A stretch of 24,116 nt of DNA. It comes from an uncultured Acidobacteriota bacterium. Its GTDB lineage: Bacteria > Acidobacteriota > Polarisedimenticolia > J045. The notes beneath the pieces are model-generated. The model saw only the letters and a list, made by a program, of their open reading frames with translations, searched no databases and had not been told where the DNA came from. Each line of letters starts with the position of its first letter. The stretch's first letter is position 1. Below, in pieces: positions 5,019 through 22,760 of the stretch. The position numbers were made by a program, and so were the translations under genes. Where the stretch lies: the NCBI GenBank assembly GCA_963702425.1, contig CAVPCQ010000022.1, positions 1 to 24,116 on the forward strand, in the 5' to 3' direction.

Positions 5019-6494
5019 TCACGCCCGGCGGCCTCCCCGAGCGTCCTGGCGGAGCACCTCGGCCAGCGCGTCGACCCCGCGCGTCAGCGGCTCCGGCGCG
5101 AGGCTCGAGAAGCCGAGACGCAGGTGCCGCACCGGCCCCGGCTCGATTCGGTAGACCCCCTCGTGCACGGCGAAGATCCCCGCCGCCCGTGCGGCGCGCG
5201 CGACCCGCCGCGCGTCGCGCTTCGTGTCGAGCCAGAGCGCCATTCCCCCGTCGGGGGTCTCCCAATCGACGTCGACCGTCTCCCGCGCGCGCGCGAGCGC
5301 CTCGACCATCGCGTCACGGCGCGCCTCGTAGTGGCGGCGCATCCGGCGCATGTGCCGTTCGATCCCCCCCGACGCGAACCAGCGTGCGATCGCGTCCTGC
5401 ACGATGGCGTCGTTCTGGTGGCTCACGATCCGCCGGAACTGCACCACCTCGCGCTCCAGGGCGGGAGGCACGGCGAGGAAGCCGATCCGCGCCGCCGGGA
5501 AGAGAACCTTGGAAAGGGTCGAGGCGTAGACCACCCGTTCGTCGGGATCGTAGGACGCGAGCGGCGGCAGCGGCTCGGTGCGGAAGTGGAACTCGTGATC
5601 GTAGTCGTCCTCGAAGATCACGATCCCGTGGCGCGAGGCGACCTCGTAGACCGCGAGCCGGCGTGCGACCGAGAGGGTCGAGGTCGTCGGGAACTGGTGC
5701 AGCGGCGTGAGGAAGAGCAGCCGGATCCGATGACGCCGCGCGAGGCGATCGAGCGCGTCGGCGTCGATCCCCTCGCGGTCCATCCCGATCCCGACGATCC
5801 GCGCACCCGCGGTGCGGAAGGCCTCCCGCGCCGGCGGGTAGGTCAGCTCCTCCATCGCCACGACGTCTCCGGAGCGGATGAGCAGCTGCGCAACGAGATA
5901 GACCCCTTCCTGGGAACCGTTCGTGACCACGACGCGGCGACCGGTGACCCCGCGGATCCGACGCAGGTAGTCTTCGAGCGCCTCCAGCAGGGACGGCAGG
6001 CCGCGCGGGTCGCCGTAGTCCAGGAGCGCCGGGCGCGCGCGGCGCAGCGCGTCGGCGACGTGGGAGCGGAACTCCCGCAACGGGAAGAGCGAGTAGTCGG
6101 GGATCCCCGACTCGAGGTTGTAGCGAACCCCGGCCGCCGGGGCGAACGGGGAGAGCCGCGCCTGTCTCGACCACTCCCAGCGATGGGGGCACGCGGCACG
6201 CGACGGTCTCCGCGCCGAATCCGGCCCCGCGCGGAAGTAGTCGACGGGGAGCGTCGGCGCGACCCGCAGCGCGCGTCGCTCCTCCCCGACGATCCAGCCC
6301 TCCGCCTTCAGCTCCTCGAGGGCGGCGATGACGGTGTTGCGGTGCACGCTGAGCGCCTCGGCCAGCTCGCGGATCGAAGGCAGGGCCTCGCCGGGGAGCG
6401 CCCGGCCCCCGGCGAGCGCCTCACGGAACGCGCGGGCGATCCTCAGGTAGTGCGGCTGGCGGCCGGCAGGTACGGCGAGCTGGAGGCCCCTCAT
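5019..6494 (-). CDS. MocR/GabR-family GntR regulator (wHTH plus PLP-binding aminotransferase-like domain), 491 aa
   Basis: LPSIRELAEALSVHRNTVIAALEELKAEGWI (GntR HTH); YGDPRG; VVTNGSQEG; IFEDDYDHEF; STLSKVLFPAARIGFL containing the PLP lysine. Confidence 0.95.
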   Translation of the reverse strand: MRGLQLAVPAGRQPHYLRIARAFREALAGGRALPGEALPSIRELAEALSVHRNTVIAALEELKAEGWIVGEERRALRVAPTLPVDYFRAGPDSARRPSRAACPHRWEWSRQARLSPFAPAAGVRYNLESGIPDYSLFPLREFRSHVADALRRARPALLDYGDPRGLPSLLEALEDYLRRIRGVTGRRVVVTNGSQEGVYLVAQLLIRSGDVVAMEELTYPPAREAFRTAGARIVGIGMDREGIDADALDRLARRHRIRLLFLTPLHQFPTTSTLSVARRLAVYEVASRHGIVIFEDDYDHEFHFRTEPLPPLASYDPDERVVYASTLSKVLFPAARIGFLAVPPALEREVVQFRRIVSHQNDAIVQDAIARWFASGGIERHMRRMRRHYEARRDAMVEALARARETVDVDWETPDGGMALWLDTKRDARRVARAARAAGIFAVHEGVYRIEPGPVRHLRLGFSSLAPEPLTRGVDALAEVLRQDARGGRRA

Positions 6495-6533
6495 CGCGTC
6501 TCCGGGCCGAACGCCGCGTCGCGCGGGCGTTTC

Positions 6534-6579
6534 TCTGGTCTACGAGAATCTCATGATCTGGTACTTTTCGATAGATCAG
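6534..6579. promoter_or_regulatory. Candidate MocR operator: two direct repeats plus one degenerate inverted copy
   Basis: TCTGGT at 6534-6539 and 6557-6562 (23-bp period). AGATCAG at 6573-6579 is the reverse complement of CTGATCT, which resembles CTGGTCT of repeat 1. Located in an AT-rich patch between divergent genes. Confidence 0.55.
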
Positions 6580-6656
6580 CGATCCCGTAGCGTCGGTTGC
6601 CTGGCGCGCCGTGCCCCGCCCGGGGGGCCGGGCCGGAGCGCCGGAGAGGGGGTTTC

Positions 6657-9041
6657 ATGGACGACGGAACGGAGCAGGAGAACGGCATGGGACGGGAGAG
6701 CGGTACGAAGCGGCGAGACGGCAGGCGCCCTGCCGGCGGCGCACGTGGCGCGGGATGGATGGCCGCGGCGGCCGTAGCGTTCGCGATGGCGGCCGCCGGC
6801 CCGCCCGCGCTCGCTCATTCCGTTCCGATGACGGCGCAGGAGATGGTCCGGGCCTCCCGGTTCATCGTCGTCGCCCGCGTCGAGCGGGCCACGCCGCTCT
6901 GGAACCAGCAGCACAACCTGATCCTCACCCGCTACACGCTGACCGTCGAGGATCCGCTGCGCGGGACCCCGCCGCGCGAACTCGAAGTGACCGAGGCCGG
7001 GGGAACGCTGGACGGCGAGACGCAGCGCTCGTGCATGACGGTCGGCCTCGAGACCGGACGGCGGTACGTCCTGTTCGTCAACGACCCCGGCGTGCCCTCC
7101 TTCAGCGCGTTCACGGGCGCCCAGTCCGGCGCTCTCCTCGAGGTTCCGGCCGAGGCGGGCGCCGGGACCGGCGGGGAACCGACGATCGCCGCGGCCGGCG
7201 GAGCGTTCGTCGAGCTGACCGGCGGGCAGCGCGTCGCCTTCCGCGAGTTCATCGAGCGGCTGCGGCGTTTCGTCGTCGAGACCGAGGCCGCGCCCGCACC
7301 GCCGGCGCTCGCGCCGGTCGTTCACGACCCGCCGCTGCCGTCCAAGACCTTCGAGCCGGTGACGCCGATGGACGTCCTGGTGCCCGTGGTCCCGATCGAC
7401 CGCGGCACCGCGCCGATCGTCGCGACGCCCGCCGAGGGACCGGAACCCCCCAGCCATCCGCAGCTCCGCGTCTACGGCGAGGAGGCCGGCCGGCTCGTCC
7501 CTCCCCGCCCCGACTCGACCGACTACAGCTACTCGCGCGCGCCGGGCCGCTACATCGTCTGGAACCAGTTGACGCCGGGCTTCGCCCCCTGGTCGCCGCA
7601 CGACCAGATGATGATGTCGCGCTGGAACAGCTACGGCGACATCCACCGGGTCTCGAGCGCACCGACCGGGAACTGGGCCTGGGGCAACAACCGCTACGAC
7701 ATGACCGGCTGGCCGTCGAGCCAGGACATGATGAACCAGTTCGGCCGCGGATGGGGAGCGAACGAGCTGGCGATCTGCTGGTCCCGCTGGTTCGGCGACG
7801 GCCCGATCGTCGAGTCCGACATCTCGATGAACCCGGCCTTCGGCTGGACGCTCGACAACGAGGAAGGAACCCACAGCGACGGCGCGTGGGGCTACGACCA
7901 GTCAGTGCTGCACGAGCTGGGTCACTCGTGGGGCCTGGCGCATCCCTGGGAGGTGCAGGACGTCTGGTGGGACTCGGTGATGAACTACTCGCCGAAGCCG
8001 ATGCGCTACCCGAACCTGTACGCCGACGACACCAACGCGATCCGCGCCGCGTACCCGGGAATCGGCGTCCACGACGGGCTGCTCTCGATGTACCAGACCA
8101 CGGACGCCATGAGCAACAACAACGCGGCGTACCTCGATACCTACCCGAACGTCTACACCGTGCAGCAGATGGACTCCTTCCGCTTCAATCAGAACTTCAA
8201 GATCGAGAACATCGGGACCGACAACATCGTCAACCCGCAGATCGAGGTCTACCTCACGCCGCAGCGGATGAACTGGTCCGGGAACGTCTACCTGCAGACG
8301 CTCTATTACGGCTTCACGATGGGCACGTACGCGACCTGGTCGCTCGACGCGGGCTGGATCTATGTCCCCTGGAGCACGCCGCCCGGCGACTACTGGGTGG
8401 GGCTCTGGCTGCGGGACGCCTCCGACCCTTACACCCACAACAACGAGGCGTGGGGCTCGCGGGAGAACGACACGCTGCGCGTGACCTCCTACCCCTGGAC
8501 GATCTACCCCGTGTCCTGGTGGCAGGCGCAGACGGTCACGCTCGGCCCGAACGGGCGCTACGACTTCTACTTCTACGCCTACCCGGGGCAGCGCTTCGAC
8601 TTCAGCACCTGCCCGAACGACGGCGGGAGCGGTTCGTTCGACACGGTGATCGAGGTCTACGACCCGTTCGGCTCCCAGGTCGGGTACGCCGACGACGACT
8701 GCGGCGTGCAGTCCCGCATCTCGCTCGAGACCGCGACGGAGGGCTCGTATCGCGTCTCCGTCCGCGGCTACTTCTCCTACTCCTACGGCCCCTTCTCGCT
8801 CGTCTATCGGTTGCGCGGCTTCGAGGAGAGCGCCTCCTTGCAGGTGGCAGCTCTCGGGACCGACCCCGGAACGGACTCGGTCGTGATTTCCTGGGTCGGC
8901 GACGTCGGGCCGTACGATCTCGAGCGTGCGACGCTTCCCGACTTCTCCGACGCCGCCCGGCTCCTGACCGGGGCCTTCGACACCTCCTACGCGGATCCCG
9001 TGCTCTCGGACGGCGTCAACTACTTCTACCGGGTGAGGTGA
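6657..9041 (+). CDS. Secreted multidomain metzincin (matrixin-like) zinc metalloprotease with Ig/CARDB-like, PPC-like and short C-terminal beta domains
   Basis: Signal peptide ending PPALA. Zinc motif HELGHSWGLAH (7911-7943) and Met-turn SVMNY. PPC-like segment FDTVIEVYD...DDDCGVQSRI...GSYRVSVRGY. Start at ATG 6657 (GGAG upstream) or ATG 6687 (AGGAG upstream). Confidence 0.85.
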   Translation: MDDGTEQENGMGRESGTKRRDGRRPAGGARGAGWMAAAAVAFAMAAAGPPALAHSVPMTAQEMVRASRFIVVARVERATPLWNQQHNLILTRYTLTVEDPLRGTPPRELEVTEAGGTLDGETQRSCMTVGLETGRRYVLFVNDPGVPSFSAFTGAQSGALLEVPAEAGAGTGGEPTIAAAGGAFVELTGGQRVAFREFIERLRRFVVETEAAPAPPALAPVVHDPPLPSKTFEPVTPMDVLVPVVPIDRGTAPIVATPAEGPEPPSHPQLRVYGEEAGRLVPPRPDSTDYSYSRAPGRYIVWNQLTPGFAPWSPHDQMMMSRWNSYGDIHRVSSAPTGNWAWGNNRYDMTGWPSSQDMMNQFGRGWGANELAICWSRWFGDGPIVESDISMNPAFGWTLDNEEGTHSDGAWGYDQSVLHELGHSWGLAHPWEVQDVWWDSVMNYSPKPMRYPNLYADDTNAIRAAYPGIGVHDGLLSMYQTTDAMSNNNAAYLDTYPNVYTVQQMDSFRFNQNFKIENIGTDNIVNPQIEVYLTPQRMNWSGNVYLQTLYYGFTMGTYATWSLDAGWIYVPWSTPPGDYWVGLWLRDASDPYTHNNEAWGSRENDTLRVTSYPWTIYPVSWWQAQTVTLGPNGRYDFYFYAYPGQRFDFSTCPNDGGSGSFDTVIEVYDPFGSQVGYADDDCGVQSRISLETATEGSYRVSVRGYFSYSYGPFSLVYRLRGFEESASLQVAALGTDPGTDSVVISWVGDVGPYDLERATLPDFSDAARLLTGAFDTSYADPVLSDGVNYFYRVR

Positions 9042-9197: not shown

Positions 9198-10163
9198 TCA
9201 GTCGCTCTCGACGTCGACCAGCTCGAGCCGCTCCCCTGTCTCGGGATCGACCTCCAGCACCACGCCGATCCCCGGGGCGTAGTACTTGTTCTCGAGGACG
9301 TCCGGCTCGATCGGCGAAAAGTCGTTCGTCTTGAGGCAGTTCGCGAACGAGCCGAACGGGACCGTCACCGACTGGCCGAGTGCGACGATCTCGCCGATGT
9401 CCTCGGCGACCTCCAGGGCGAACTCCTGGCGGTACACGTCGGATCCTCGCGGAGCGGCCCGCATGATCACGCCGGCCTGGGCCCCGTCGACGCCCGCCTG
9501 CCACGACCCCGCGAGGCCGGCCAGTTCGCCCCCCTCGAACTGCTGCGAGAGCTCGCCGAAGTACCAGACGTTCCCCGCCCGGTCCTGCGCGTACCAGTCG
9601 AGCGTGTCCTCGACCACGACCCCGTCCAGGCGGGCGATGTCCCTCACGACCACGCACGACACGCCCAGGATCGTCTTCGTCTCGCGCGTGACCTGGACCT
9701 CGACGTGCTCGAACCCGGCGTCCGTCTGCCCCTCGTAGATGGACGTCGTTCCCGGCGTCAGCGGGAAGTAGGGGTTGTCGATCGTATCGACGAAGTCGTC
9801 GGGATCGATGACCGGGTTGTAGGCGTCGCCGCCGAGCTGGGAGCAGAGGTCGATCCTTGCGGCGTATTGCTCCCGGCAGAGGTGCTGTTCTTCGTCGAGC
9901 ACCGCCTGCGCGTCCCGCCGGCAGGCCTTGAAGTCCCCGCCGGCCGGGAGGTTGCGGCACGTTCCGATGGCGAGCCAGTAGTCCTGTCGCACTCCGAAAC
10001 CGCACGACTCCTTGGCGGCCGAGGCCGTCGCCCCGCAGGGGCAGTTGCAGCCGTCTTTGGGCGCGGACTGGGATGTCCCCGCGAACAGCGATATCGTCAA
10101 CCCGGCGAGCGTGAGCACGACCGGAGCGCGCTTCCTGGCGCTCTGCAATGAACGAGAGTTCAT
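9198..10163 (-). CDS. Exported hypothetical protein (about 321 aa) with a Cys-rich N-terminal helical region and a beta-rich C-terminal domain
   Basis: ATG 10163 after GGAAGGGAG. Signal-peptide-like N-terminus. Folded-protein-like composition with IDNPYFPLTPG, DWYAQDRAGNVWYFGE, VTVPFGSF and KYYAPGIG segments. Confidence 0.8.
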   Translation of the reverse strand: MNSRSLQSARKRAPVVLTLAGLTISLFAGTSQSAPKDGCNCPCGATASAAKESCGFGVRQDYWLAIGTCRNLPAGGDFKACRRDAQAVLDEEQHLCREQYAARIDLCSQLGGDAYNPVIDPDDFVDTIDNPYFPLTPGTTSIYEGQTDAGFEHVEVQVTRETKTILGVSCVVVRDIARLDGVVVEDTLDWYAQDRAGNVWYFGELSQQFEGGELAGLAGSWQAGVDGAQAGVIMRAAPRGSDVYRQEFALEVAEDIGEIVALGQSVTVPFGSFANCLKTNDFSPIEPDVLENKYYAPGIGVVLEVDPETGERLELVDVESD

Positions 10164-10177
10164 TCCCGTCTCCCTTC

Positions 10178-10218
10178 CCGGGCCCCTGGCCCGGACGATC
10201 CGGCAGGCTTCGGCCTGC
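10178..10218. other. Two tandem short hairpins in the 61-bp intergenic gap
   Basis: CCGGGCC-CCT-GGCCCGG (10178-10194) and GCAGGC-TTCG-GCCTGC (10203-10218), between the PepSY-like gene stop and the RBS of the next gene. Confidence 0.35.
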
Positions 10219-10224
10219 AGGCAG

Positions 10225-10671
10225 TCAGTCATCCTCGGTCCCGAGCACGGTCCCGTCCTCGGCCACCAGCAGCTCCTTCTCCGACAGTCCGGAGCGGAGC
10301 TCGAGTTCGTAGGCCACCTTCCCATCGGCGTGCGTCACCTTTTCGACCGATGTCGGCTGCCTGTCCTTGTACTCCGCGTGGAACGCATCGAGCACGGCCT
10401 TCGGGACCTGCTCCAGCGGGATCTCTTCCTCGGTCACCAGGATCTTCCCGTCGGGCGCGACGCCGATCTCGACCACGCGCTTGTCTTTCGCCCTCACCAT
10501 CACGGCGTACTGCTCGACTCCTCCCTCCTTCTCCGCCTTGCAGCTCTTGATCGTGCTCTCCGGGTACGCCCTGGCGATGGCCGCCCTGACGGCGTCCGGG
10601 CACTTTCCGGCGGCAGCCGGGGTCCCCGCGGCGAGCACCACGGTGACGAGTGTGATCAACGTCCTGGTCAT
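10225..10671 (-). CDS. Periplasmic PepSY-like (BLIP-like, two-repeat) protein, 148 aa
   Basis: ATG 10671 overlaps the kinase stop (ATGA), with an AAGGAG RBS and a signal peptide. Two repeats: CPDAVRAAIARAYP...YAV...PDGKIL and VPKAVLDAFHAEY...YEL...EDGTVL. Confidence 0.85.
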   Translation of the reverse strand: MTRTLITLVTVVLAAGTPAAAGKCPDAVRAAIARAYPESTIKSCKAEKEGGVEQYAVMVRAKDKRVVEIGVAPDGKILVTEEEIPLEQVPKAVLDAFHAEYKDRQPTSVEKVTHADGKVAYELELRSGLSEKELLVAEDGTVLGTEDD

Positions 10672-12152
10672 CGCGACTTCTCCTTGCCGGGTGTTTCTCC
10701 CGGCGGTGTTTCGATCAGTCTGTCGGCCGCGACCTGTTGAGCGAGCGGCAGCAAGATCTCGACGACGAACTCTCCGCCCCGCTCGCAGCGCACGGCAATC
10801 GTTCCGCCGAGCAACTCGACGATCTGCCGCGCAAGCGGCATCCCCAGCCCGCAGTGCGCTCCATCGCCCGAGCGCGACGCGTCGTCGCGCCAGAACCGAT
10901 CGAAGACGAGCTCGGCCTGCTCCGGGGAGAGGGGGCAGCCGCTGTTGGCGATCCTCGCGAGAAGACGATTCCCGGCGATCCGCGTTTCCACGCGCACGCA
11001 TCCGCCGGGATCGGCATAGGTGGTGGCGTTGGCGAACAGGTTCCGGAAGGCGATCCGCAGCTTCTCCTCGTCGCCGAGTGCGGCGGCTCCCGCCAGGTCC
11101 CACGAAACCGAGAGCCCGCGTTCGGATGCCACCGGTTCGAAAGGCTGCCAGCACTCTCGCAGCAAGCCGCCGACATCGGCGGGCCTCAGGCGAACGGGGC
11201 TCTGCCCGGACTCGATCCGCGCCAGCTCGAGGAGGTTCTCCACCATGGTCTGCATGTCGGTGACCATGGAGAGGCAGCGCGTGTAGTCCTCGCGGGTGTC
11301 TGCCGGCCGGCCCGGAACCAGGAGCGCCACCTCCAGCGTCGTGCGCAACCCGGCGAGCGGCGTGCGCAGCTCGTGCGCAACGTTGGAGACCAGCGTCCGC
11401 TCGCGCGTGAAGGCCGCCGCGAGCCGCGCGAGCATGGCGCGCAGGGAGCCGACCAGCGGTTCCACTTCCATCGGGACCGGGCCGCGCAGCGCGACGCTCT
11501 GCGCGAGACCGGTCTCGTCCAGTGCGCCGATCTTCTGGGCCAGCTCGACGAGGGGCGCGAGGCCGCGGCGCGTCGCCCACGTCAGGATCGCCGCGAGTAC
11601 GAGGCCGGAGACCAGCCAGGCCCCGGCCAGCACGAACCGCAGCCGCGCGAGGGCTCTGAGAACGCCGCTCGCGTCGCGGCCGAGGGCCACGACGACGGCG
11701 AATGGCGCCGCGGCGGGCGGCGACTCCTCGTCAGGCGGAAGGTCGGCGGCGAGGCGAACCACGCGGGCGCGGCGGCCTCCGGCGAGTTGGGCCCACGAAT
11801 GGTGTGGTTTGTTCGACGCGGGCGGCTCGAACTCGAGGTCGGGTGAGCCGGACCCCGCCAATCGCGCAATCAGAACGCCGGAGTTGCTCCACACCCCGTA
11901 GAATGCCGGTCCCGCGCTGCCGTTGTCCTGGCCCGGATCGGGCGCCGCGGCCTCGCACTCGACCCCGTCGGCGTCGGCATCGCAGAGCGCGGCGACCGCC
12001 CGCGCTTCGGCCACCAGGGAGGCGTCGAGCTGCTGGATCCAATCGCGGCGGATCAGGACGTAGACCAGGCTCATCGACAGGAGCAGGACGACCGAGCTGC
12101 CCGCGAGCACGCTGGCGAGCAGCCGCGAGCCGATCGAGCGCGTCACTCGCAC
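10668..12152 (-). CDS. Two-component sensor histidine kinase (two TM segments, HAMP, HisKA, HATPase; CusS/QseC-like)
   Basis: H-box VSNVAHELRTPLA, N-box NLFANATTY, F-box VFDRFWRDDASR and G2 CGLGMPLA. The G1 box reads ANSG rather than DxG. Start at GTG 12152 or 12146. Confidence 0.92.
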   Translation of the reverse strand: MRVTRSIGSRLLASVLAGSSVVLLLSMSLVYVLIRRDWIQQLDASLVAEARAVAALCDADADGVECEAAAPDPGQDNGSAGPAFYGVWSNSGVLIARLAGSGSPDLEFEPPASNKPHHSWAQLAGGRRARVVRLAADLPPDEESPPAAAPFAVVVALGRDASGVLRALARLRFVLAGAWLVSGLVLAAILTWATRRGLAPLVELAQKIGALDETGLAQSVALRGPVPMEVEPLVGSLRAMLARLAAAFTRERTLVSNVAHELRTPLAGLRTTLEVALLVPGRPADTREDYTRCLSMVTDMQTMVENLLELARIESGQSPVRLRPADVGGLLRECWQPFEPVASERGLSVSWDLAGAAALGDEEKLRIAFRNLFANATTYADPGGCVRVETRIAGNRLLARIANSGCPLSPEQAELVFDRFWRDDASRSGDGAHCGLGMPLARQIVELLGGTIAVRCERGGEFVVEILLPLAQQVAADRLIETPPGETPGKEKSR

Positions 12153-12826
12153 GGCGGTTCCTCCGCGAGGACGTAGCCGTAGCCGCGTCGCGTATGGATC
12201 AAGCGCGGGTGCCCCCCCGCCTCGAGTTTGCGCCGCAGGTAGCCGACGTAGACGTCGACGACGTTGCTCTGCAGGTCGGCCGTGCTCTCGTACAGGTTCT
12301 CCCAGATGGCGGTGCGCGTGACCGGCCGACCGGCCCGCAGCGCGAGGAACTCGAGCAGCGCGTACTCGCGCGCGGTCAGCTCGATCGGCTGGCCGTTGCG
12401 GGCGACCATGCGCGCCACCGTGTCGATCGTCAGGCCGGCGACGGCCACGACGGGGTTGCGGTGCTCGTGGTGACGTCGCAGGAGCGCCCGGACCCGTGCG
12501 AGCAGCTCCTCGAACGCGAACGGCTTGACGAGGTAGTCGTCGGCACCGCGGTCGAGACCCTGGACGCGGTCGTCGACGCCGTCCCGGGCCGTCAGCAGCA
12601 GGACCGCCGTCGTGCCCGCGCGCCGGCGGATCCTCTCGAGCACGGACAGTCCATCCATGCGGGGCAGCATCAGGTCGAGGATGACGAGGTCGTACTCCCG
12701 GTCCAGCGCGAGCGAGAGCCCCTCCAACCCATCGGCCGCTGCGTCGACCGCGTATCCGGCCGTGCGCAGACCGCGGGCGAGAGCGTCTCGAAGCGGCGCG
12801 TAATCCTCGACCACGAGGACCTTCAT
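12143..12826 (-). CDS. OmpR/PhoB-family response regulator (227 aa)
   Basis: MKVLVVED, LVILDLMLP (phospho-acceptor Asp), LLLTARD, GADDYLVKPF, LTAREYALL and IHTRRGYGY. ATG 12826 follows GGAGGG. Confidence 0.96.
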   Translation of the reverse strand: MKVLVVEDYAPLRDALARGLRTAGYAVDAAADGLEGLSLALDREYDLVILDLMLPRMDGLSVLERIRRRAGTTAVLLLTARDGVDDRVQGLDRGADDYLVKPFAFEELLARVRALLRRHHEHRNPVVAVAGLTIDTVARMVARNGQPIELTAREYALLEFLALRAGRPVTRTAIWENLYESTADLQSNVVDVYVGYLRRKLEAGGHPRLIHTRRGYGYVLAEEPPCE

Positions 12827-12845
12827 CCGAAGCCCTCCGCTGCAG

Positions 12846-12879
12846 ACCATACGGGACCGATCATGAGAAGACGATGAGA
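12846..12879 (-). promoter_or_regulatory. Candidate OmpR-type tandem binding site plus -10 element for the two-component operon
   Basis: On the minus strand TCTCAT occurs twice with an 11-bp period (12874-12879 and 12863-12868) in the -35 zone, followed by TATGGT (12846-12851). Confidence 0.55.
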
Positions 12880-12895: not shown

Positions 12896-15199
<2,304 letters not shown>

Positions 15200-15353
15200 G
15201 ATACGCGGGTTGCGACGTATTGCGGCCTAACGTCTTGTTTATCAACATCTTGCAGGCAGGACAGGAGGCCGCGGACCGGGTCACCCTCCGGCGCTGGCAC
15301 TCCCCCCCGAACCACCGGGGTTAGACTGACCTCGCGGTCCGGAGGACCCCGCC

Positions 15354-18032
15354 ATGGGGGGCGGCCCGAACGGTGACGGGACGGTGTCGACGCGGGGTTT
15401 CGAGGACCCGCTCAATCCCGGTGACCGCGTCGGCCACTACGAAATCGTCGAGGCCCTTGGGCAAGGCGGCATGGCTGTCGTCTACCGGGCCCGCGACGTG
15501 CGGCTCGCGCGCCACGTCGCGCTCAAGAGCCCGCTGGTGCGGTCCGCGCTCGACCCGCGCCTGCAGCGCCGGATCCTCCAGGAGGCGCGCATCGCCGCGC
15601 TGCTGCAGCACTCCAACATCGTCCCGATCTACGACGTCTTCGACGTCGGCGGCCGGCCGTGGATCGCGATGCAACTCGTGGAAGGGGGCAGCCTCGCCGA
15701 GCGGATCAAGCGGGACGGCGCGCTTCCCCCGGCCGAGGCGGTGGCGATCGCCGCGGCGATCGCGGACGCTCTCGCCGCCGCTCACGAGCAGGGCGTGCTC
15801 CACCGCGACGTCAAGCCCGGGAACATCCTGATCACCCGGCAGGGCGTCCCGCTTCTCGCCGACTTCGGGGTCTCGAGCTGGAGCCTGCGGGACCGGGACG
15901 AAGACTCGCCCTACAGCACGGCGGTGACTGAGGCCGACCACGGACCGATTCCCGGCACGCCGGCCTACATGTCGCCCGAGCAGGTCGCGGGTGAACCACT
16001 CGACGCGCGCAGCGATCTCTTCTCGCTCGGCGCGATGCTGTACGAGATGTGCGCCGGCCGGCGCCCCTTCCGCGGGGAGCACTCGTCGGCGGTCCGCGAA
16101 GCGGTCGCCCAGCTGGACCCGCCGCCGGTCGCCAGCCTGAATCCCGCGGTCCCGGCCGAACTCCAGCGAATCGTCGCGAAGTCGCTGGCGAAGCGGCGCG
16201 AGGACCGCTACCAGTCCGCGCGGGAGATGCTCCTCGACCTGCGCGCGCTGGAGCAGCAGTTCCGGGAGGGGACGCTCGAAACACGGAGCACTCGGAGCCG
16301 GCCACGTTGGAGGGTTCTTGCGATCGCGGGCGTCGTCGCTGCCGCGGGCGTCGCGGTCGCCCTGTTGCTGAGCGGGTTCGAACTCCTGCGGCCCGCGCCG
16401 AAGCCGCCTGCCCGCCCGCGACAGCTCACGACATGGCCCGGCCGCGAGTCGCGGCCGGCGGTCTCACCCGACGGTACGCTGGCCGCGTTCGAATCCGATC
16501 GCGCGGGAAACGGCGACATCTGGCTCGTCGACGTGCGCGGCGGCGAGCCGCTGCGGCTCACCGACGACCCGGCCGCCGACCGCAGTCCGGCCTGGTACCC
16601 GGATGGACGCGCGATCGCGTTCGTGTCCGAGCGCGACGGTGCACCCGGAATCTGGCGCGTCCCGACACTCAGCGGGCCGCAGGTCCGGCTGATCCCCGAC
16701 GCGGCCGATCCCGCGATCTCGCCGGACGGCAGGACGATCGCCTTCTCGGCACCGCACGGAAGGTGGCGCCGCATCGCGGTCGCGCCGCTCGATGACCTGG
16801 GTGCAGTGACCTGGCTGACGCACGACGACGACGGCCTGTGGGACCACGCGCAGCCGGCGTGGTCGCACGACGGCCGGATGATCTGCTACGCCGAGGCGAA
16901 GGACCTCTGGCTGGTGCCGGCGACGGGCGGCGCCGCACACCGGCTGACCACCGACGGTGCGGCCGACTTCGCGCCTGCGTGGTCGTCCGACGATCGGATG
17001 ATCTACTTCGCGTCGTACCGCGACGGCACGCTCGCGCTTTGGCGCATCCCGGTCGCGGGGGGCAGGCTCGAGCGCGTGACGCTCGGCACGGGGAGCGAAA
17101 GCGAGCCGAGCATCTCTTCGGACGGCTCGCGCCTGCTGCACTCCACGGTCGATGTCCAGATCGACTTCGTACTGCGCGATCTCGCGACCGGGACCGAATC
17201 GGTCCTTCCCGAGTCGCGCCTGCGCGCCTCGCCCGCGTTGGCGCCCGACGGCAGTTCCCTCGTGTACAGCGCGCGCGGGGTCGGCGGGCGGACGGACCTG
17301 TGGGTGCAATCGCTGGACCGCGGCAAGCCGAGCGGGCCAGTTCGACAGCTCACGGAGCAGACCGGGACCGTCTCACACCCGGAATTCTCTCCTGACGGCC
17401 GCTGGGTCGCGTACTACCGCGTCGCCGACGGTCAGCGCGACGTCTGGATCGTCCCCGCCGCCGGAGGAGCGCCGGTCCGCTTCACCGACGGTCCGGCCAA
17501 CGAGATGGAGCCCGCGTGGTCGCCCGACGGCCGGTGGATTGCGTACTCGTCGGACCAGGGCGGCGGGAACCGCCTCTGGATCGCGCCGGTGAGCGCGGGG
17601 CGCCCTTCGGGGCCGGCGCGGCAGCTGACGCGCGGGCCGACCAGCGACTTCGACCCCCAATGGTCTCCCGACGGCCGGCGCATCGCGTTCCTGGGCAACA
17701 CCGCAAAGAGCCAGGAGGTCTACCTCCTCGAGCTGGAAGGAGCTGCCGAGCCGCAGCAGCTGACGACTGGCGCGAGTGCGCGGGATCAGCAGTGGTCGCG
17801 CGTCCGTGACGAGCTCTGGGTGCTGGGCAACTGGGGCACGGAGGGGCTGGAGCTCCGGCGGTTGCCGTCTGCGGGAGGCCGGGGCAGCCCGCTCGAACCG
17901 CAACCGCGCGTCGGGGAAAACGAAGTGAGCGCACGCTTCGGCATCTCGGAGGACGGGCGGTACCTCGTCTACATGCAGGACCGTGCGGCCGGGAACATCT
18001 GGGTTCTCGACGCGTCGAAGGGTGCGTACTGA
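15354..18032 (+). CDS. Membrane Ser/Thr protein kinase with extracytoplasmic PD40/TolB-like beta-propeller repeats (892 aa)
   Basis: GQGGMA, VALK, HRDVKPGN, DFG and GTPAYMSPEQ motifs; TM VLAIAGVVAAAGVAVALLL; about 12 PxWSPDG-type repeats. GGAGG precedes the ATG. Confidence 0.93.
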   Translation: MGGGPNGDGTVSTRGFEDPLNPGDRVGHYEIVEALGQGGMAVVYRARDVRLARHVALKSPLVRSALDPRLQRRILQEARIAALLQHSNIVPIYDVFDVGGRPWIAMQLVEGGSLAERIKRDGALPPAEAVAIAAAIADALAAAHEQGVLHRDVKPGNILITRQGVPLLADFGVSSWSLRDRDEDSPYSTAVTEADHGPIPGTPAYMSPEQVAGEPLDARSDLFSLGAMLYEMCAGRRPFRGEHSSAVREAVAQLDPPPVASLNPAVPAELQRIVAKSLAKRREDRYQSAREMLLDLRALEQQFREGTLETRSTRSRPRWRVLAIAGVVAAAGVAVALLLSGFELLRPAPKPPARPRQLTTWPGRESRPAVSPDGTLAAFESDRAGNGDIWLVDVRGGEPLRLTDDPAADRSPAWYPDGRAIAFVSERDGAPGIWRVPTLSGPQVRLIPDAADPAISPDGRTIAFSAPHGRWRRIAVAPLDDLGAVTWLTHDDDGLWDHAQPAWSHDGRMICYAEAKDLWLVPATGGAAHRLTTDGAADFAPAWSSDDRMIYFASYRDGTLALWRIPVAGGRLERVTLGTGSESEPSISSDGSRLLHSTVDVQIDFVLRDLATGTESVLPESRLRASPALAPDGSSLVYSARGVGGRTDLWVQSLDRGKPSGPVRQLTEQTGTVSHPEFSPDGRWVAYYRVADGQRDVWIVPAAGGAPVRFTDGPANEMEPAWSPDGRWIAYSSDQGGGNRLWIAPVSAGRPSGPARQLTRGPTSDFDPQWSPDGRRIAFLGNTAKSQEVYLLELEGAAEPQQLTTGASARDQQWSRVRDELWVLGNWGTEGLELRRLPSAGGRGSPLEPQPRVGENEVSARFGISEDGRYLVYMQDRAAGNIWVLDASKGAY

Positions 18033-18051
18033 AAGCCGTGGGGGAGGAATC

Positions 18052-18402
18052 ATGGCGAAGAAGCGGACGGGGACTGCGAAGGGTCAGGACAAGCTGACGG
18101 TGCTGGATCTCATCAATACGCTCGAGCACATCGAGGCCTGGACGGGTGCCGTACGGCAGGCTCTCGAGACGCTGCCGCCCACGCTGGAGTTGTCGCTCCG
18201 GATCCCGGGGCCCGTTCCGCCCCCGCCGCTCGCGCGATGGGAATGCTACCCGGAGCTCAGGGCGCAGAGCGGGATCTGGGGGCGTCCGGCATGGCTGTGC
18301 TTCCAGTCGCTGGACGCTCTGGGTTCCGACATCCGACCCGGCGACGCGGAGGCCACAACCAAGCGGCCGCAGAAGCGGCCCACCAAACGACCCAAGCGTT
18401 GA
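18052..18402 (+). CDS. Small hypothetical protein (116 aa); candidate substrate or precursor of the adjacent radical SAM/SPASM enzyme
   Basis: Strong RBS GGGGAGGA before ATG 18052, 19 bp after the kinase stop. GC3-rich codons. Contains an amphipathic helix, a Pro-rich linker, WECY/WGR/WLCF motifs and a KRPx tail. The function is inferred from context only. Confidence 0.75.
   Translation: MAKKRTGTAKGQDKLTVLDLINTLEHIEAWTGAVRQALETLPPTLELSLRIPGPVPPPPLARWECYPELRAQSGIWGRPAWLCFQSLDALGSDIRPGDAEATTKRPQKRPTKRPKR
18361..18399 (+). repeat. Degenerate 12-nt tandem repeat encoding KRPQ-KRPT-KRPK-R
   Basis: AAGCGGCCGCAG AAGCGGCCCACC AAACGACCCAAG CGT. Confidence 0.7.
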
Positions 18403-18430
18403 CGGCGCGCCGCGATCGGACCGCCCGTCG

Positions 18431-19732
18431 ATGGCCCCCGCGAGCGACGAGCCAGCCGCTGTCGTGCGCGCCCTGACCGCGCTGCTGACGGCGGAATGCA
18501 ACCTCCGCTGCCGGTACTGCTATCAGCGGCGACGCGGGGCCGGACCCATGACGTGGCCCACGCTGCGCGCCGCCGTCGACTGGCTGTTCGCCGGGCCCGC
18601 GGATCAGCTTCGGCTCGGCTTCACGGGGGGCGAGCCGCTCCTGGAGATCGCGCTGCTCCGCCGCGCGGTCTCCCGCGCCGAGCGGCTTCGCACCCCGGGC
18701 CTTCCGATCGAATACGGGCTCACCACCAACGGCTTGCTGCTCGATCCCGCGGCCGCTCGCTTCCTCGAGCGGCACCGCTTTCGCGTGCAGCTCAGCTTCG
18801 ACGGTGTCCCGCGCGCACAGGACCTGCGCGAACCGGACAGCTTCGCGGCGCTCGACGCGCTCCTGGCCCGGCTGCGGCGTGACAACCCCCGACTCCACGA
18901 GGACGGACTGAGCGTCGCGATCACCGTCTCTCCGGATGCCGTCCCGTACCTCGCAGAGTCGGTCGCGTACCTCCTCGACCGCCGCGTGCGGCGGCTGCTC
19001 CTCGGACCGGCCATGAGCACCGCCGGTGGCGGGAGCGCGGACGCGATCCGACGCCTCGAGCGCGAGTTCGAGCGCATCGAGCGGATCTGCTGGTCCCGCT
19101 TCCAGGCGACGGGGGCGGCGCCGCTCGTTCTGTTCGGTGGATCGCTCTGGGCGGCGTACGGACGCGAGCCACGCTCGAGACGCCGGAGCGCGCGCCGGCG
19201 CGCCCCCATTCCGATGTGCCGGATGGGGCAGCTCACCCAGCTGACGGTCGACGTCGACGGGGCGCTCTGCGAGTGTCCCCTGCTGGCACCTTCGGTGGCC
19301 GACCTCGGGTCCGGGCGCCCACGCTTCCCGCTGCCGCGGCTCGCGCTGGGCACCATCCGCAGCCCCGAGCTCGAGGCCCACGCCGCGTCGTACCGCGTGG
19401 CCCTCTCGGGGACTGGTCTCTTCGACGACCGGCGGGCCAAGTACTCGGGCTTCGGCCGCTGCGCCGAGTGCCGTCACCTCGGCCGCTGTGCGGTCTGCCC
19501 GATGTCGATCGCGATGACGCCGGGGAATGCCGACCCGCACCGGATTCCCGATTTCCAGTGCGCGTTCTACCGCGCGGCCCTCGGACACGCCGAGCGCTTC
19601 CGCAGGCGGGTCGCTCGCGTGACTCCTCCGGGCGGGGAGCCCTTCATCCCGCTCGCCATGCGCCGCCTTGCCGCGGCGCTCGGGGGAGACGGCCGGCCGG
19701 CGGCGGCGCTCAGTCGACCTCCTGCGCGGTGA
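18431..19732 (+). CDS. Radical SAM / SPASM-domain protein (anSME/peptide-maturase-like), about 433 aa
   Basis: CNLRCRYC (Cx3Cx2C), FTGGEPLL, TTNGLLL and LSFDG motifs. SPASM cysteines Cx13Gx4C followed by Cx2Cx5Cx2Cx20C. Start uncertain (ATG 18431 or GTG 18464). Confidence 0.92.
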   Translation: MAPASDEPAAVVRALTALLTAECNLRCRYCYQRRRGAGPMTWPTLRAAVDWLFAGPADQLRLGFTGGEPLLEIALLRRAVSRAERLRTPGLPIEYGLTTNGLLLDPAAARFLERHRFRVQLSFDGVPRAQDLREPDSFAALDALLARLRRDNPRLHEDGLSVAITVSPDAVPYLAESVAYLLDRRVRRLLLGPAMSTAGGGSADAIRRLEREFERIERICWSRFQATGAAPLVLFGGSLWAAYGREPRSRRRSARRRAPIPMCRMGQLTQLTVDVDGALCECPLLAPSVADLGSGRPRFPLPRLALGTIRSPELEAHAASYRVALSGTGLFDDRRAKYSGFGRCAECRHLGRCAVCPMSIAMTPGNADPHRIPDFQCAFYRAALGHAERFRRRVARVTPPGGEPFIPLAMRRLAAALGGDGRPAAALSRPPAR

Positions 19733-20132
19733 GGAACATCGCCTTCTCGAAGGCCTGGAAGAACTGCTGGTAGAGCACCGGGTCCGTGACCGGCTCGACG
19801 GCGTACTGCGCGCTGGCCCGCACGACGACCTGCGTCGTGCCGCGCTCGCGGACGGTCACCGTGATCCGCAACGGGTATCTGTCCAGCTTGGTCGCGCTCA
19901 CGGTCCCCAGCTCGAGATCGGCCTTGTCGATCACGAAGCCCAGGTCCTGGAGCGTGGCGATCGCGGTCCTCAGGGTCTTCTCGACGTCCGTCGTGTCGAA
20001 CGCCCGCGTCTGGATCGCCCGGAGCTGCACCTGGGACTGGCCGGTGTCGAGCACCTGCTCGGTCGTCGTCGCACAGCCGACGAGAAGGAGCGCGAGGATC
20101 ACTGCCTGTCCGAAACGGCTCCCGGTTCTCAT
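19710..20132 (-). CDS. Hypothetical lipoprotein (140 aa), paralog of 20137-20661
   Basis: ATG 20132; lipobox LVGC; motifs LRAIQTRAFDT, LQDLGFVI and LYQQFFQAFEKAMFL. Confidence 0.85.
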   Translation of the reverse strand: MRTGSRFGQAVILALLLVGCATTTEQVLDTGQSQVQLRAIQTRAFDTTDVEKTLRTAIATLQDLGFVIDKADLELGTVSATKLDRYPLRITVTVRERGTTQVVVRASAQYAVEPVTDPVLYQQFFQAFEKAMFLTAQEVD

Positions 20133-20136
20133 CGGC

Positions 20137-20661
20137 TCAGATCTCGTGGGCGTCGAGGAAAACCGCCTTGGACAACCGGCGGAAGAACTCCTGATACAGC
20201 TCCGGGGCCTCCAGGCTCTCCTCCCGCGTGATCGTGTTTTCGGTGCTGAACACGATCCGTTGGAAGGTGACCCGGACGATCGTCCCCGGCTCCACACCGG
20301 CCAGGGGACGGGTCACGACGGCGACGCGGATCTTCTGGTTCTTCTCGATCGGGATCCGCACGCCGATGGCCGCCGCGAAGGCCGCTCCGACGATCTGCCC
20401 CGCGTTCATCGCATCGCGGTCCTTCGACCCGACGATCACTCCCAGCTTCGTCTCGCTCTCCTCGATCGTGAAGCCCAGGTCCTGCAGCAGACCCGCGGAC
20501 GCCTTGAGCAGCTCGAGCTCCTTCCCGGTGTCGAAGCGGCGCGACTGCAGCTGCCGCAGCGCCAGGCTCTCCGGAGAGAGGGTGAGCGCGTCCGGGGGCA
20601 CACCGGTCGCGCATCCCGTCAGGACGACACCGATGAGCAGGCAGGCGACGCCGGTCCGCAT
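20137..20661 (-). CDS. Hypothetical lipoprotein (174 aa), paralog of 19710-20132
   Basis: ATG 20661; lipobox LTGC; motifs LRQLQSRRFDT, LQDLGFTI and LYQEFFRRLSKAVFL. Confidence 0.85.
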   Translation of the reverse strand: MRTGVACLLIGVVLTGCATGVPPDALTLSPESLALRQLQSRRFDTGKELELLKASAGLLQDLGFTIEESETKLGVIVGSKDRDAMNAGQIVGAAFAAAIGVRIPIEKNQKIRVAVVTRPLAGVEPGTIVRVTFQRIVFSTENTITREESLEAPELYQEFFRRLSKAVFLDAHEI

Positions 20662-20672
20662 GAATGAAGATC

Positions 20673-21071
20673 TCAGAAGGTCGATGCGTGATAGGCGAAG
20701 TCCCGGACCTTCTTGTTCTCGTCGAATTTCACGATGATGGTCAAGGTCTTCTGGGTGGTCGTCTGGGAGCTCGACGAATTCGACCCGCCGACGACGACGA
20801 TCGTGAAGTAGCCGTCCTGCGAGCTGTCGACGCGCGTGGTCGAGACCTTGTCCCAGACCCACACCTCCCGGCGCTGGTCGTCGGTCGTCACGACGTTCGG
20901 CGAGCCGAGTGCCTGGATGACCTCCTCGCCGGACATGCCGATGGCGATCTTCCGCTGCACTTCGCCGACGGTGAGCTGGGTCTCGCCCGGCGCGGGCTCG
21001 GGAGCGGGGGTCGTCGCGCATCCGAGGAGCGACGACGCCACGAGGACGGACAGCAACCAGGGGGTTTTCAC
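20673..21071 (-). CDS. SmpA/OmlA (BamE-like) domain lipoprotein (132 aa)
   Basis: GTG start after GAGGAGG; lipobox LLGC; IAIGMSGEEVIQALGSP, EVWVW and LTIIVKFDENKKV fit the SmpA/OmlA pattern. Confidence 0.8.
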   Translation of the reverse strand: MKTPWLLSVLVASSLLGCATTPAPEPAPGETQLTVGEVQRKIAIGMSGEEVIQALGSPNVVTTDDQRREVWVWDKVSTTRVDSSQDGYFTIVVVGGSNSSSSQTTTQKTLTIIVKFDENKKVRDFAYHASTF

Positions 21072-21299: not shown

Positions 21300-22760
21300 A
21301 TGAGTGCTTCCGGCTCTGTGGCGGGTCGCGCGGCGCTCGCCGTCGGCTTGATGGTCGGCTTCTATGTCCTGGCGCTCGCGATCACGGCCGCGCTCGTCTT
21401 TGTGCCGATTGCCGAGGTGGTCTACACGAACCGGATCCATCCGAAGATCGCGCTCATCTGCCTCATCGGGGCCGCGACGATTCTCTGGTCGATTCTCCCG
21501 CGCCGGGATCGGTTCGACGCGCCCGGTCCGACCCTCGAGCCGGCGAGCCACCCGAAGCTGTTCGCGGAGATCGAGGGGGTCGCGCGGGCGACGGGGCAGG
21601 TCATGCCCGCGGAGGTGTTCCTGGTCGGCGACGTCAATGCCTGGGTCGCGCAGCGCGGCGGCGTCATGGGGTTCTTCAGCCGGCGAGTGATGGGGCTCGG
21701 ACTGCCCCTGCTGCAGACTCTCTCGGTGTCGGAGCTGCGTGCCGTCCTCGCGCACGAGTTCGGCCACTACTACGGCGGCGACACCCGGCTCGGCCCGTGG
21801 GTCTACAAGACGCGATCCGCGATCGGCCGCACGATCGGAGGCCTCGGGAACTCGTTCCTTCAGCTTCCGTTCCTGCTCTACGGCAACCTCTTTCTCAGGG
21901 TCTCGCACGCGGTGTCACGGCGCCAGGAGCTCAGCGCCGACGCGCTGGCCTCGCGGGTCGCCGGATCGCGGCCGCTCGTCGAAGGGCTGAAGAAGGTCCA
22001 GCTCGCGGCGGCCGGCTACGACGCGTACTGGTCACAGGAGGTCCTCCCCGTCGTGCAGGCGGGGTTCCTTCCGCCGATCGCGGAAGGCTTCCGGAGGTTC
22101 ACTTCCGACGCTCGAGTCTCCGAGGGGATGACGAAACTGCTCGAGGCGGCATTGCAGGAGGCCAGGGCCAACCCCTACGACACTCACCCACCGCTGGCTG
22201 AGCGGATCGCCGCCGCGTCCGGCCTGCCGGACGGGCCCGATCCCTCCGGGGAGCCACCCGCGATCTCGCTCCTGTCGGACGTCGCAGGCCTGGAGCGCAG
22301 GTGGCTCGCCACGGTGGCCGATGCGACGAGCGTCGGAACGCTCGCCCCGATCGCGTGGGACTCGGTTGTCTCCGCCGTTTTCCTGCCTGCCTGGCGCGCT
22401 GCGGTGGCGACGAACGCGGCCGCGCTCGAGGGGGCGACCGTTTGCGATCTCCCGAAGTTCATCTCCGAGGGCGCTGCCCGGGCCACGCGTTTGCCAGGCC
22501 GCCTCGAACCGGACAATGCCCCGGATGCTCGCAAAGCCTTCGTCCGATGGCTGGCGGCCGCGGGAACGATCCTGGCGCTCGAGCGCGCGGGCTGGACGAT
22601 CGCGGCCCCTCCCGGGGCTCCCGTGTCGGCGCGACGGAACGGGGACGAGCTGTTCCCCTTCGACGCGCTGCGGAAGATCGCAGACGGTTCGCTCACGGGC
22701 GACGCGTGGCGCGACGAAGCGTCGCGCCTCGGGGTCGGGGACCTGTCGCTGGCGGGCTGA
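21300..22760 (+). CDS. M48-family (HtpX/Ste24-like) membrane zinc metallopeptidase (486 aa)
   Basis: Two N-terminal TM segments; VNAWV; ELRAVLAHEFGH (HExxH); SRRQELSAD (third zinc ligand); DTHPPLAERI. Confidence 0.93.
   Translation: MSASGSVAGRAALAVGLMVGFYVLALAITAALVFVPIAEVVYTNRIHPKIALICLIGAATILWSILPRRDRFDAPGPTLEPASHPKLFAEIEGVARATGQVMPAEVFLVGDVNAWVAQRGGVMGFFSRRVMGLGLPLLQTLSVSELRAVLAHEFGHYYGGDTRLGPWVYKTRSAIGRTIGGLGNSFLQLPFLLYGNLFLRVSHAVSRRQELSADALASRVAGSRPLVEGLKKVQLAAAGYDAYWSQEVLPVVQAGFLPPIAEGFRRFTSDARVSEGMTKLLEAALQEARANPYDTHPPLAERIAAASGLPDGPDPSGEPPAISLLSDVAGLERRWLATVADATSVGTLAPIAWDSVVSAVFLPAWRAAVATNAAALEGATVCDLPKFISEGAARATRLPGRLEPDNAPDARKAFVRWLAAAGTILALERAGWTIAAPPGAPVSARRNGDELFPFDALRKIADGSLTGDAWRDEASRLGVGDLSLAG

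Follow-up and report, generated by a model that had tools for sequence, protein, structure and literature searches.

What does a small gene of no recognised protein family do directly ahead of a gene for a radical S-adenosylmethionine (SAM) enzyme with a SPASM-type region? The question is raised by a stretch of 24,116 nucleotides from an uncultured Acidobacteriota bacterium (lineage Polarisedimenticolia, J045; contig CAVPCQ010000022.1 of assembly GCA_963702425.1), which was analysed at its full length and is called the window. It carries one copy of a three-gene cassette read in one direction, consisting of a kinase fused to a PD40 propeller, a small Cys-containing protein and a radical SAM/SPASM enzyme. 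From the comparisons given below, the cassette is real and widespread, and it looks like an undescribed peptide-modification system of soil and sediment bacteria. On balance, we favour the reading that the enzyme is a Cys-directed maturase lacking a recognition element (RRE) for peptides made on the ribosome and modified after translation (RiPPs), and that it acts on a precursor with a leader helix, probably forming a thioether.

The small open reading frame (ORF) extends from the ATG at 18052 to the TGA at 18400-18402 (18052..18402, plus strand, as is the whole cassette) and encodes 116 amino acid residues. It follows the stop codon of the kinase gene after 19 nt, and a gap of 28 nt (18403-18430) separates it from the ATG of the radical SAM gene at 18431. 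A Shine-Dalgarno-like sequence, GGGGGAGGAA (18040..18049), is located 2 nt ahead of its start. The sequence agrees here with a preliminary description of the window, in which a 116-residue ORF with a strong ribosome-binding site was said to end 28 bp before a radical SAM/SPASM gene. The GC content at codon positions 1, 2 and 3 is 0.66, 0.54 and 0.84. This pattern resembles that of the flanking kinase gene (0.73, 0.55 and 0.88) and radical SAM gene (0.76, 0.58 and 0.87) and is not found in the other frames, and by this measure the small ORF looks coding.

The encoded protein is precursor-like, with a basic N-terminus, an amphipathic leader-like helix, a Pro-rich linker, two Cys motifs and a basic tail. 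The conserved helix comprises residues 17-40 (18100..18171). In the AlphaFold2 model, obtained from a 20-row alignment, it is the single confident helix, with a predicted local distance difference test (pLDDT) value above 90, and the remainder of the chain is unstructured. The first motif is W63-E-C65-Y66, followed by P67-E68 (18238..18249), and the second is W81-L-C83-F84 with D88 at position +5 (18292..18303). The translation bears out the earlier account of these motifs, of W76-G-R between them and of C65 and C83 as the sole Cys residues; a fourth Trp, W30, is located inside the helix. Two or more W-x-C motifs were obtained in 178 of 200,000 shuffles of the small protein. Its C-terminal tail (18355..18399) is rich in Lys, Arg and Pro. 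Similar basic tails are found at loci L025, L026 and L101 of the family described below, and basic N-termini at L029 and L048.

No Pfam, NCBIfam or PADLOC family matched the small protein, the ESM Atlas gave no usable match, and a word-index search with the single protein returned only the protein itself. A profile search found 11 proteins, all annotated as hypothetical and without Pfam domains. In a single-sequence search of 1.8 billion representatives the sole relatives were P0122 and P0123, with 42-45% identity and E about 2e-15; P0123 is the product of the syntenic gene in a genome of the same genus (G003).

Relatives of the radical SAM enzyme allow the pair to be followed more widely. Of 8000 scored candidates, 380 such proteins reach E<=1e-10, and at least 389 of 597 pattern-matched stretches (one genome per species) encode a relative. 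The locus comparison is based on the best 80 of these at least 389 loci. A hidden Markov model of the helix was seeded with the window protein, P0122 and P0123 and iterated on six-frame translations of the loci, whereby it converged on the helix region. It matches plus-strand segments ahead of the radical SAM gene in 31 of 81 loci, against 0 of 498 reversed gap segments and 0 of 406 minus-strand segments. The consensus is T-V..L...L..I-E.W....R..L; among 35 copies of the helix the Leu is kept in 33, the Arg in 28, the Trp in 25 and the Thr, located at the start of the helix, in 22, and in 8 copies Arg or Lys takes the place of this Thr. The earlier proposal of the helix as leader is thereby sustained, in that the helix is the conserved leader-like part of the protein. 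As judged from these matches, the small ORF and the radical SAM gene are a real conserved pair. A chance open frame would suit the window, where the GC content of 70% goes with numerous long spurious ORFs on either strand. However, the codon-position pattern shared with the flanking genes, the strong ribosome-binding site, the homologues of 42-45% identity with conserved synteny and the empty reversed and opposite-strand controls make this explanation extremely improbable.

The arrangement of the helix in the chain is variable. Two helix copies flank the core at L052, L061 and L063, and the core lies ahead of the helix at L064 and at L031, L032 and L036. Two consecutive ORFs with the helix domain were observed before the radical SAM gene at L033:3312-3961, L032:1084-1407 and L036:3160-3483, which suggests either multiple precursors or a separate partner that consists of the helix only. 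In the other 50 of the 81 loci the gap also contains a small ORF, usually with a stretch predicted to be helix-like and a Cys.

The second conserved feature is the Cys residue. Twenty small proteins were aligned (alignment A2). Three of these are the window protein, P0122 and P0123, and the other 17 were taken from the 25 locus ORFs in which the helix was found. Because of a non-ATG or incomplete start, the ORFs of L033, L058, L061, L081 and L098 were left out; those of L052, L063 and L064 were left out because the helix is doubled or the order reversed. C65 falls in an invariant column (20/20), the only such column that is neither Met nor Leu; T16, L24, R35 and L38 are at least 90% conserved. 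All 29 of the helix-positive ORFs that abut the radical SAM gene contain at least one Cys outside the helix. Around the 51 Cys sites of this kind, Pro occupies each of the positions +1, +2 and +3 in 22-23 cases (background 10%), Asp or Glu position +4 in 14, and Gly position -1 in 15; at position -2 there are 10 Gly and 4 Tyr. From these counts a core consensus G-C-P-P-P-(D/E), often repeated, is obtained. Among 69 gap ORFs, 18 contain the pattern C[PA]P, compared with 6 of 152 minus-strand control segments; these counts are rough, since the heuristic of taking the longest ORF in the gap selected wrong frames in some loci (for example L048, L056 and L095).

Internal repeats centred on Cys were found in the window and at L029, L030, L031, L032, L036, L033, L046, L056, L060, L067, L069, L073 and L083. 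Examples are L-D-Y-G-C-P-P-P twice (L029), W-Y-G-G-C-P-P-P twice (L046), W-D-x-D-C-[AP]-P-P three times (L073), G-G-K-P-C four times (L067) and G-Q-T-K-x-S-C three times (L060). Several precursors end right at a Cys (L065, L066, L068, L070, L077, L091, L093, L094 and L095).

It is important to compare this core with the one first proposed, which was defined by twin W-x-C-aromatic motifs. W-x-C occurs twice only in the near clade of three, namely the window protein, P0122 and P0123, all of which have W-x-C-x4-D as the second motif. In P0122 and P0123 the Cys is followed by Leu, Glu or Ala and not by an aromatic residue. One distant member, at L048, has L-E-W-G-C-F, and there is no conserved aromatic position across the precursor family, either in A2 or around the 51 Cys sites. 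The check suggested at the time, whether the ORFs upstream of homologous enzymes keep the helix or the W-x-C, therefore gave a divided answer: the helix is kept (31/81 loci) and a Cys is invariant, while W-x-C is not conserved. Set beside the consensus G-C-P-P-P-(D/E), the W-x-C-aromatic motif is, from these alignments, a local variant of a Cys-centred core and not its defining feature.

The partner enzyme (18431..19732) has 433 amino acid residues. It matches the Pfam Radical_SAM model (PF04055) with 45.2 bits, above the cut-off of 29.5, and the cluster motif C23-x3-C27-x2-C30 (18497..18520) is present, placing it in the radical SAM superfamily. Thirty of the 121 listed homologues were aligned (A1), and each of these three Cys residues is at least 90% conserved among them. 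The SPASM-type region C263-x13-G277-x4-C282 ... C344-x2-C347-x5-C353-x2-C356 ... C377 (19217..19561) has seven Cys residues, which together with G277 are invariant in the 30 sequences. It conforms to the pattern C-x9-15-G-x4-C ... C-x2-C-x5-C-x3-C ... C, with a last spacing of x2 and not x3. The cluster motif begins at residue 23 in the window enzyme, and in none of the 30 aligned homologues is the N-terminus more than about 30 residues away from it; being so near the N-terminus in every case, it leaves the enzyme without an N-terminal RRE. Dependence on a separate RRE is not indicated either: PqqD was matched in neither Pfam nor NCBIfam, and the cassette consists of three genes only.

The best NCBIfam match is PapB (NF047865), with 103.5 bits against a cut-off of 340 (E 1e-29, residues 12-199). 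The nif11 maturase model follows with 92 bits against 519, and CcpM is also among the best matches. Lower scores were obtained for QhpD (TIGR03906, 65.8 against 453), for the anaerobic sulfatase-maturating enzyme, anSME (TIGR03942, 54.2 against 349.45), and for the SCIFF maturase (TIGR03974, 52.9 against 425). The families forming cyclophanes or triceptides (NF041718, NF041707, TIGR04269 and TIGR04261) reach 27.5-38.8 bits against 310-445, with E from 5e-10 to 1e-6 for the window enzyme. The matches to peptide maturases cover the N-terminal half only. The ranking is alike in 30 of 30 family members: PapB (best E 2.1e-43), then QhpD (1.3e-35), nif11 and CcpM. Because the curated cut-offs are not reached, the enzyme is filed under none of PapB, SCIFF, anSME, QhpD or the cyclophane families, in line with the candidate new system of the preliminary description.

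The AlphaFold2 model of the enzyme has a mean pLDDT of 85.6. Its nearest Foldseek neighbours are CteB (top), anSME and ChlB, the last of which was solved with the leader of its substrate; the template modeling (TM) scores are 0.62-0.76 over about 400 columns, and the full-length fold aligns to the SPASM enzymes CteB and anSME over 403-428 columns. A sequence profile search of the PDB gave CteB at 1.7e-29 and anSME at 2e-21, and phmmer with the SPASM region alone gave no relevant alignment to PDB sequences. Prediction of the complex of the enzyme (A1), three 4Fe-4S clusters, SAM and the small protein (A2) scored 0.02 against a mark of 0.32, a value without controls that argues neither for nor against binding. 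An Arg-rich insertion of 11 residues (19136-19189, within residues 236-253) is found in the window enzyme and the 74%-identical P0003 and not in the other 28 homologues; it is the part of the model with the lowest confidence (pLDDT below 50). PADLOC did not identify the cassette as a defence system: the small protein had no matches, the kinase matched generic kinase models only (PD-T4-6 and others), and the radical SAM enzyme had weak pVip matches over residues 19-127.

The third component of the cassette, which by its synteny is the kinase-PD40 gene (15354..18032), had been overlooked. It encodes a Hanks-type Ser/Thr kinase (Pfam Pkinase, 2e-45) with one hydrophobic segment as transmembrane helix and a TolB-like PD40 beta-propeller (2e-73, 8 stretches). 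In 70 of 80 loci a gene for a homologue of this kinase-propeller protein, on the strand of the radical SAM gene, ends no more than 900 nt ahead of the start of that gene. Of the ten without it, six have less than 700 nt of upstream sequence, no such kinase is present at L059, L081 and L090, and L044 has the kinase on the opposite strand. The catalytic loop H-[RAC]-D-x4-N and the DFG motif are present in 61 of 61 near-complete kinase domains, that of the window included, and a hydrophobic 19-mer (>1.8) in 55 of the 61. Judging from these motifs and the gene order, the kinase is a catalytically intact enzyme that is genetically locked to the small protein and the radical SAM enzyme.

In the mechanism that we propose, the enzyme would bind the helix of the small protein directly and modify the invariant Cys in the unstructured part of the chain. 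The bond formed would run from the Cys sulfur to a carbon atom of a residue close by, which would yield a thioether of the ranthionine or sactionine type and change the mass by -2 Da per Cys. C65 and C83 would be the targets in the window, and E68 (+3) and D88 (+5) are candidate acceptors. The membrane kinase may act on the small protein or on the enzyme by phosphorylation, or its outward-facing propeller may sense the product. It appears likely from the conservation described above that the small protein is the substrate of the enzyme and is modified at Cys; for a thioether as the product we would put the chance slightly short of even. A thioether is favoured because the nearest relatives are PapB, QhpD, CcpM and CteB, because PapB joins Cys to Asp or Glu, which requires little beyond a thiolate and a carboxylate, and because seven, not eight, SPASM Cys residues are kept. 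In CteB a SPASM region with seven Cys leaves a cluster site for the substrate Cys, whereas both auxiliary clusters of anSME are fully ligated by eight.

Several observations weigh against this proposal. The Pfam SPASM model (PF13186) gave no match to the enzyme at E<=0.01, and transfer of function is weak because the enzyme falls far below every NCBIfam cut-off. The data give the order and spacing of the genes, their conservation and co-occurrence, motif statistics and the fold class, and the chemistry, like the substrate, its target residue and the role of the kinase, is inferred from these. Precursors that end at a Cys mean that a PapB-like link to a downstream carboxylate is not universal, and the cores of the window itself are divergent and without the C-P-P-P consensus. 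The mere presence of Cys was rejected as evidence, since it is found in 67 of 69 gap ORFs and also in 133 of 152 non-coding control segments. For the small ORFs of the 50 loci missed by the helix model, homology cannot be claimed. In addition, the radical SAM orthologue of G003 (L022, G003:C11:16000-30000, about 6407-7738, minus strand) is readable as three pieces in two frames, so that two frame changes are implied. The small ORF of L022 is intact, but several frames are likewise needed to read the kinase-PD40 gene ahead of it; either the cassette is decaying or the 20-contig G003 assembly contains indel errors.

A single-residue modification has to be considered in this connection. The enzyme could act like anSME, abstracting a hydrogen from the Cys C-beta to give formylglycine or another product without a crosslink. 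Since the precursors ending at Cys lack a downstream acceptor and Pro at +2 (23 of 51 Cys sites, and C65-Y-P67 in the window) recalls the sulfatase motif C-x-P-x-R, this is a serious rival, and both points weigh against a single PapB-like rule. anSME is among the closest solved structures, and several members bear the JGI label 'sulfatase maturation enzyme AslB', an automatic name. However, position +4 is Asp or Glu (14/51) and not Arg, the TIGR03942 score of 54.2 bits stands against a cut-off of 349, seven SPASM-region Cys residues are conserved against the eight of anSME, and the top NCBIfam relatives are thioether formers. We therefore regard anSME-like oxidation as unlikely. Less probable still is the chemistry first suggested for the window, which takes the two W-x-C-(Y/F) motifs as the core of a new class with Trp-Cys or cyclophane-type crosslinks. 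Both W-x-C motifs are indeed kept in P0122 and P0123, the L-E-W-G-C-F of the distant member recalls them, Trp or Tyr precedes the Cys by 2-4 residues at L029, L030, L043, L046, L053 and L073, and ChlB, which we take to be a cyclophane (triceptide) former, is a structural neighbour. Yet the aromatic residue after Cys is lost even within the near clade, most cores of the family have no Trp near the Cys, and the cyclophane families give E of 5e-10 to 1e-6 compared with 1e-29 for PapB. Crosslinks of this kind are not favoured, because the nearest enzymes are Cys-thioether formers and anSME.

The small protein could also be an adaptor or substrate of the kinase, and the radical SAM enzyme could have another target, for example the kinase-propeller protein or some small molecule. 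No neighbour is more constant than the kinase (70/80 loci), the Thr at the helix start (22 of 35 copies) could be a phosphorylation site, many of the small proteins have long basic tails unlike typical secreted RiPPs, and the enzyme has no RRE. Against this stand the replacement of that Thr by Arg or Lys in 8 of 35 copies and the hypervariable, Cys-centred and often tandem cores beside a SPASM enzyme whose nearest relatives are all maturases of peptides or proteins. Such cores next to a SPASM enzyme are the hallmark of a precursor-maturase pair, and a role restricted to the kinase is accordingly judged as improbable as the Trp-Cys chemistry. The thioether-forming maturase remains the reading that we prefer. 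Somewhat unlikely is the idea that the cassette is a signalling device and not an antibiotic pathway, in which a receptor kinase is hard-wired to a Cys protein crosslinked by the radical SAM enzyme. In one version, the matured peptide may be the ligand of the periplasmic PD40 propeller, giving a pair of RiPP autoinducer and receptor kinase; in another, the kinase may phosphorylate the modified small protein, which would act in the cell via its basic tail. Either version, if true, would be a new link of radical SAM peptide chemistry to Hanks-kinase signalling, spread over Acidobacteriota, Eisenbacteria and neighbouring phyla.

Among the known systems close to the cassette is the ranthipeptide system of PapB and its precursor PapA (freyrasin). 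PapB is a radical SAM/SPASM enzyme acting on Cys in repeated short motifs, as is proposed for the enzyme of the cassette; it is the best NCBIfam match in all 30 members, and the family core C-P-P-P-(D/E) is formally C-x3-D/E. PapB links the Cys sulfur to C-beta of Asp or C-gamma of Glu in C-x3-D motifs and tolerates spacings of 0-6 (PMC9413430), and can also use the C-terminal residue (PMC12373016). The differences are the low identity and the score of 103.5 bits against 340, the unrelated helix domain of the precursor, the many members that end at Cys, and the spacings C65-x2-E68 and C83-x4-D88 in the window, which are not C-x3-D. PapB clusters are not known to have a receptor kinase as constant neighbour. 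Of the solved structures, those of CteB (PDB codes 5wgg and 5why), the SCIFF thioether maturase and another SPASM enzyme with a Cys peptide as substrate, are closest by both profile and Foldseek. Unlike the family enzyme, CteB has an N-terminal RRE-type extension, so that the alignment starts at CteB residue 93 and profile residue 4, and the TIGR03974 score (52.9 against 425) is low. SCIFF precursors have six Cys in about 45 residues, and the small protein has two.

The structures of anSME (PDB codes 4k36-4k39; TM scores 0.64-0.76) resemble the enzyme as an RRE-less SPASM protein, with a Cys followed by Pro at +2 as the target, which in the cassette is a proposed one. They differ in the TIGR03942 score and the number of SPASM Cys residues already given, and in the substrate, which here would be a small helix protein. 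QhpD and its substrate QhpC also form a comparable pair, with a SPASM enzyme from the second-best NCBIfam family making Cys thioethers in a protein of about 100 residues retained in the cell, but the score is 65.8 bits against 453. In agreement with the preliminary description, no sulfatase or quinohemoprotein target, nor any gene for a Qhp subunit, was found among the coding-like ORFs of the window scanned with Pfam. In Methanococcus voltae the SPASM radical SAM enzyme CrpC, with a predicted RRE, makes ranthionine links on the adjacent Cys-rich protein CrpA (PMC13692751). The target would here likewise be an adjacent Cys-bearing protein and not a short secreted peptide; unlike CrpA, the small protein of the cassette has one or two Cys, and there is no RRE and a kinase partner. 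RiPP pathways with a kinase are also known, as in class III and IV lanthipeptide synthetases, where there is a genetic link between a protein kinase fold and a ribosomal precursor peptide. The kinase of the cassette differs in being a membrane receptor-type Hanks kinase fused to PD40, and no lyase, cyclase or PqqD/RRE protein accompanies it.

The radical SAM family is, on the counts given above, large and without a name or curated model; its members have automatic names only ('AslB', 'radical SAM protein'). By record title, the hosts are mostly Acidobacteriota (Vicinamibacteria, Terriglobia, Holophagae and Thermoanaerobaculia), with Candidatus Eisenbacteria, Krumholzibacteriota and Aminicenantia in addition. 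A few metagenome-assembled genomes are labelled Fibrobacteraceae, Microthrixaceae, Clostridia or Acidithiobacillales. Among 40 related genomes a family-level match was found only in G003 (about 70% identity) and G020 (33%, full length); the others have generic radical SAM similarity only (E>=1.7e-13). The homologue in G020 lies 31 nt from a contig end, and its upstream gene is beyond view. The small-protein profile matched G000 and G003 only among 41 genomes, with one copy each, and these are the only two with a close orthologue of the enzyme; G034 is among the negatives in both counts. In a quick maximum-likelihood tree of 80 of the 81 sequences, from which one shorter than 330 residues was left out, the window enzyme stands beside L042 and L076 with a Shimodaira-Hasegawa-like approximate likelihood ratio (SH-aLRT) value of 85 only. 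The precursor types track the clades of the enzyme, with C-P-P-P types together and Cys-ending types together. This is merely consistent with co-evolution, because the relatives share labels.

The logic of a precursor and its radical SAM/SPASM maturase is known; the precursor family, the absence of an RRE and the fixed receptor-kinase partner are new. A literature search found no description of a cassette of kinase-PD40, small Cys peptide and radical SAM enzyme. A compendium of radical SAM RiPP enzymes (PMC10288494) is restricted to RRE-associated ones, and its main text contains neither 'kinase' nor 'Acidobacter'. New peptide chemistry comes to a large extent from radical SAM/SPASM maturases, and large surveys of them start from a recognisable RRE. 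The present family lacks both an RRE and a curated model, and its precursors are known only by the label of hypothetical protein, yet it occurs in hundreds of species-level genomes of soil and sediment phyla that are hard to culture. Its firm link to an intact receptor kinase is unusual and gives a testable handle on the role of such peptides. With a total length of 4.4 kb, the three genes could be expressed in E. coli.

Contigs of four public runs were compared with the window. One of these runs, of DNA from freshwater sediment, contains identical pieces. A metatranscriptome library contains a piece of 212 nt from the radical SAM gene (18766-18977), with 2 differences, and a contig of 151 nt that covers 19732-19800 with 69 nt of its length. 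These contigs are no proof of transcription, because such libraries can hold DNA and the small ORF is uncovered. A scan of 15000-20400 gave no promoter-like and two terminator-like sites, which is not above shuffled sequences.

Neither peptidase nor exporter belongs to the operon in the window, as was originally stated. At 16 of 81 loci, the window not among them, a same-strand gene 3' of the radical SAM gene encodes a lipoprotein with a region like M64 (IgA) peptidase (for example L097:5236-7107), which could be an extracytoplasmic processing enzyme for the peptide. An M48 peptidase gene (21300-22760) is located 1.5 kb from the cassette in the window. Three lipoprotein-like genes on the minus strand (19710-21071) converge on the cassette. 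Two of them, at 19710-20297 and in an ORF ending at 20137 with a lipobox start near 20700, look paralogous and are unassigned to a family; the third (20673-21071) is BamE-like (PF04355, E 3e-4). The gene at 19710-20297, next to the cassette on its 3' side, overlaps the end of the radical SAM gene by 23 nt. Farther upstream, an 814-residue protein (6597-9041, plus strand) has weak matches to zinc metallopeptidases (Matrixin 3.7e-4, Reprolysin_5 7.7e-4), and Pfam assigns no family to the adjoining ORF of 375 residues (9198-10325, minus strand). Another Hanks kinase, with TPR repeats fused to it (12896-15199, minus strand), is divergent from the cassette kinase at a distance of 154 nt, with a two-component pair (10668-12850, minus strand) behind it; the cassette is therefore found in a signalling-rich neighbourhood.

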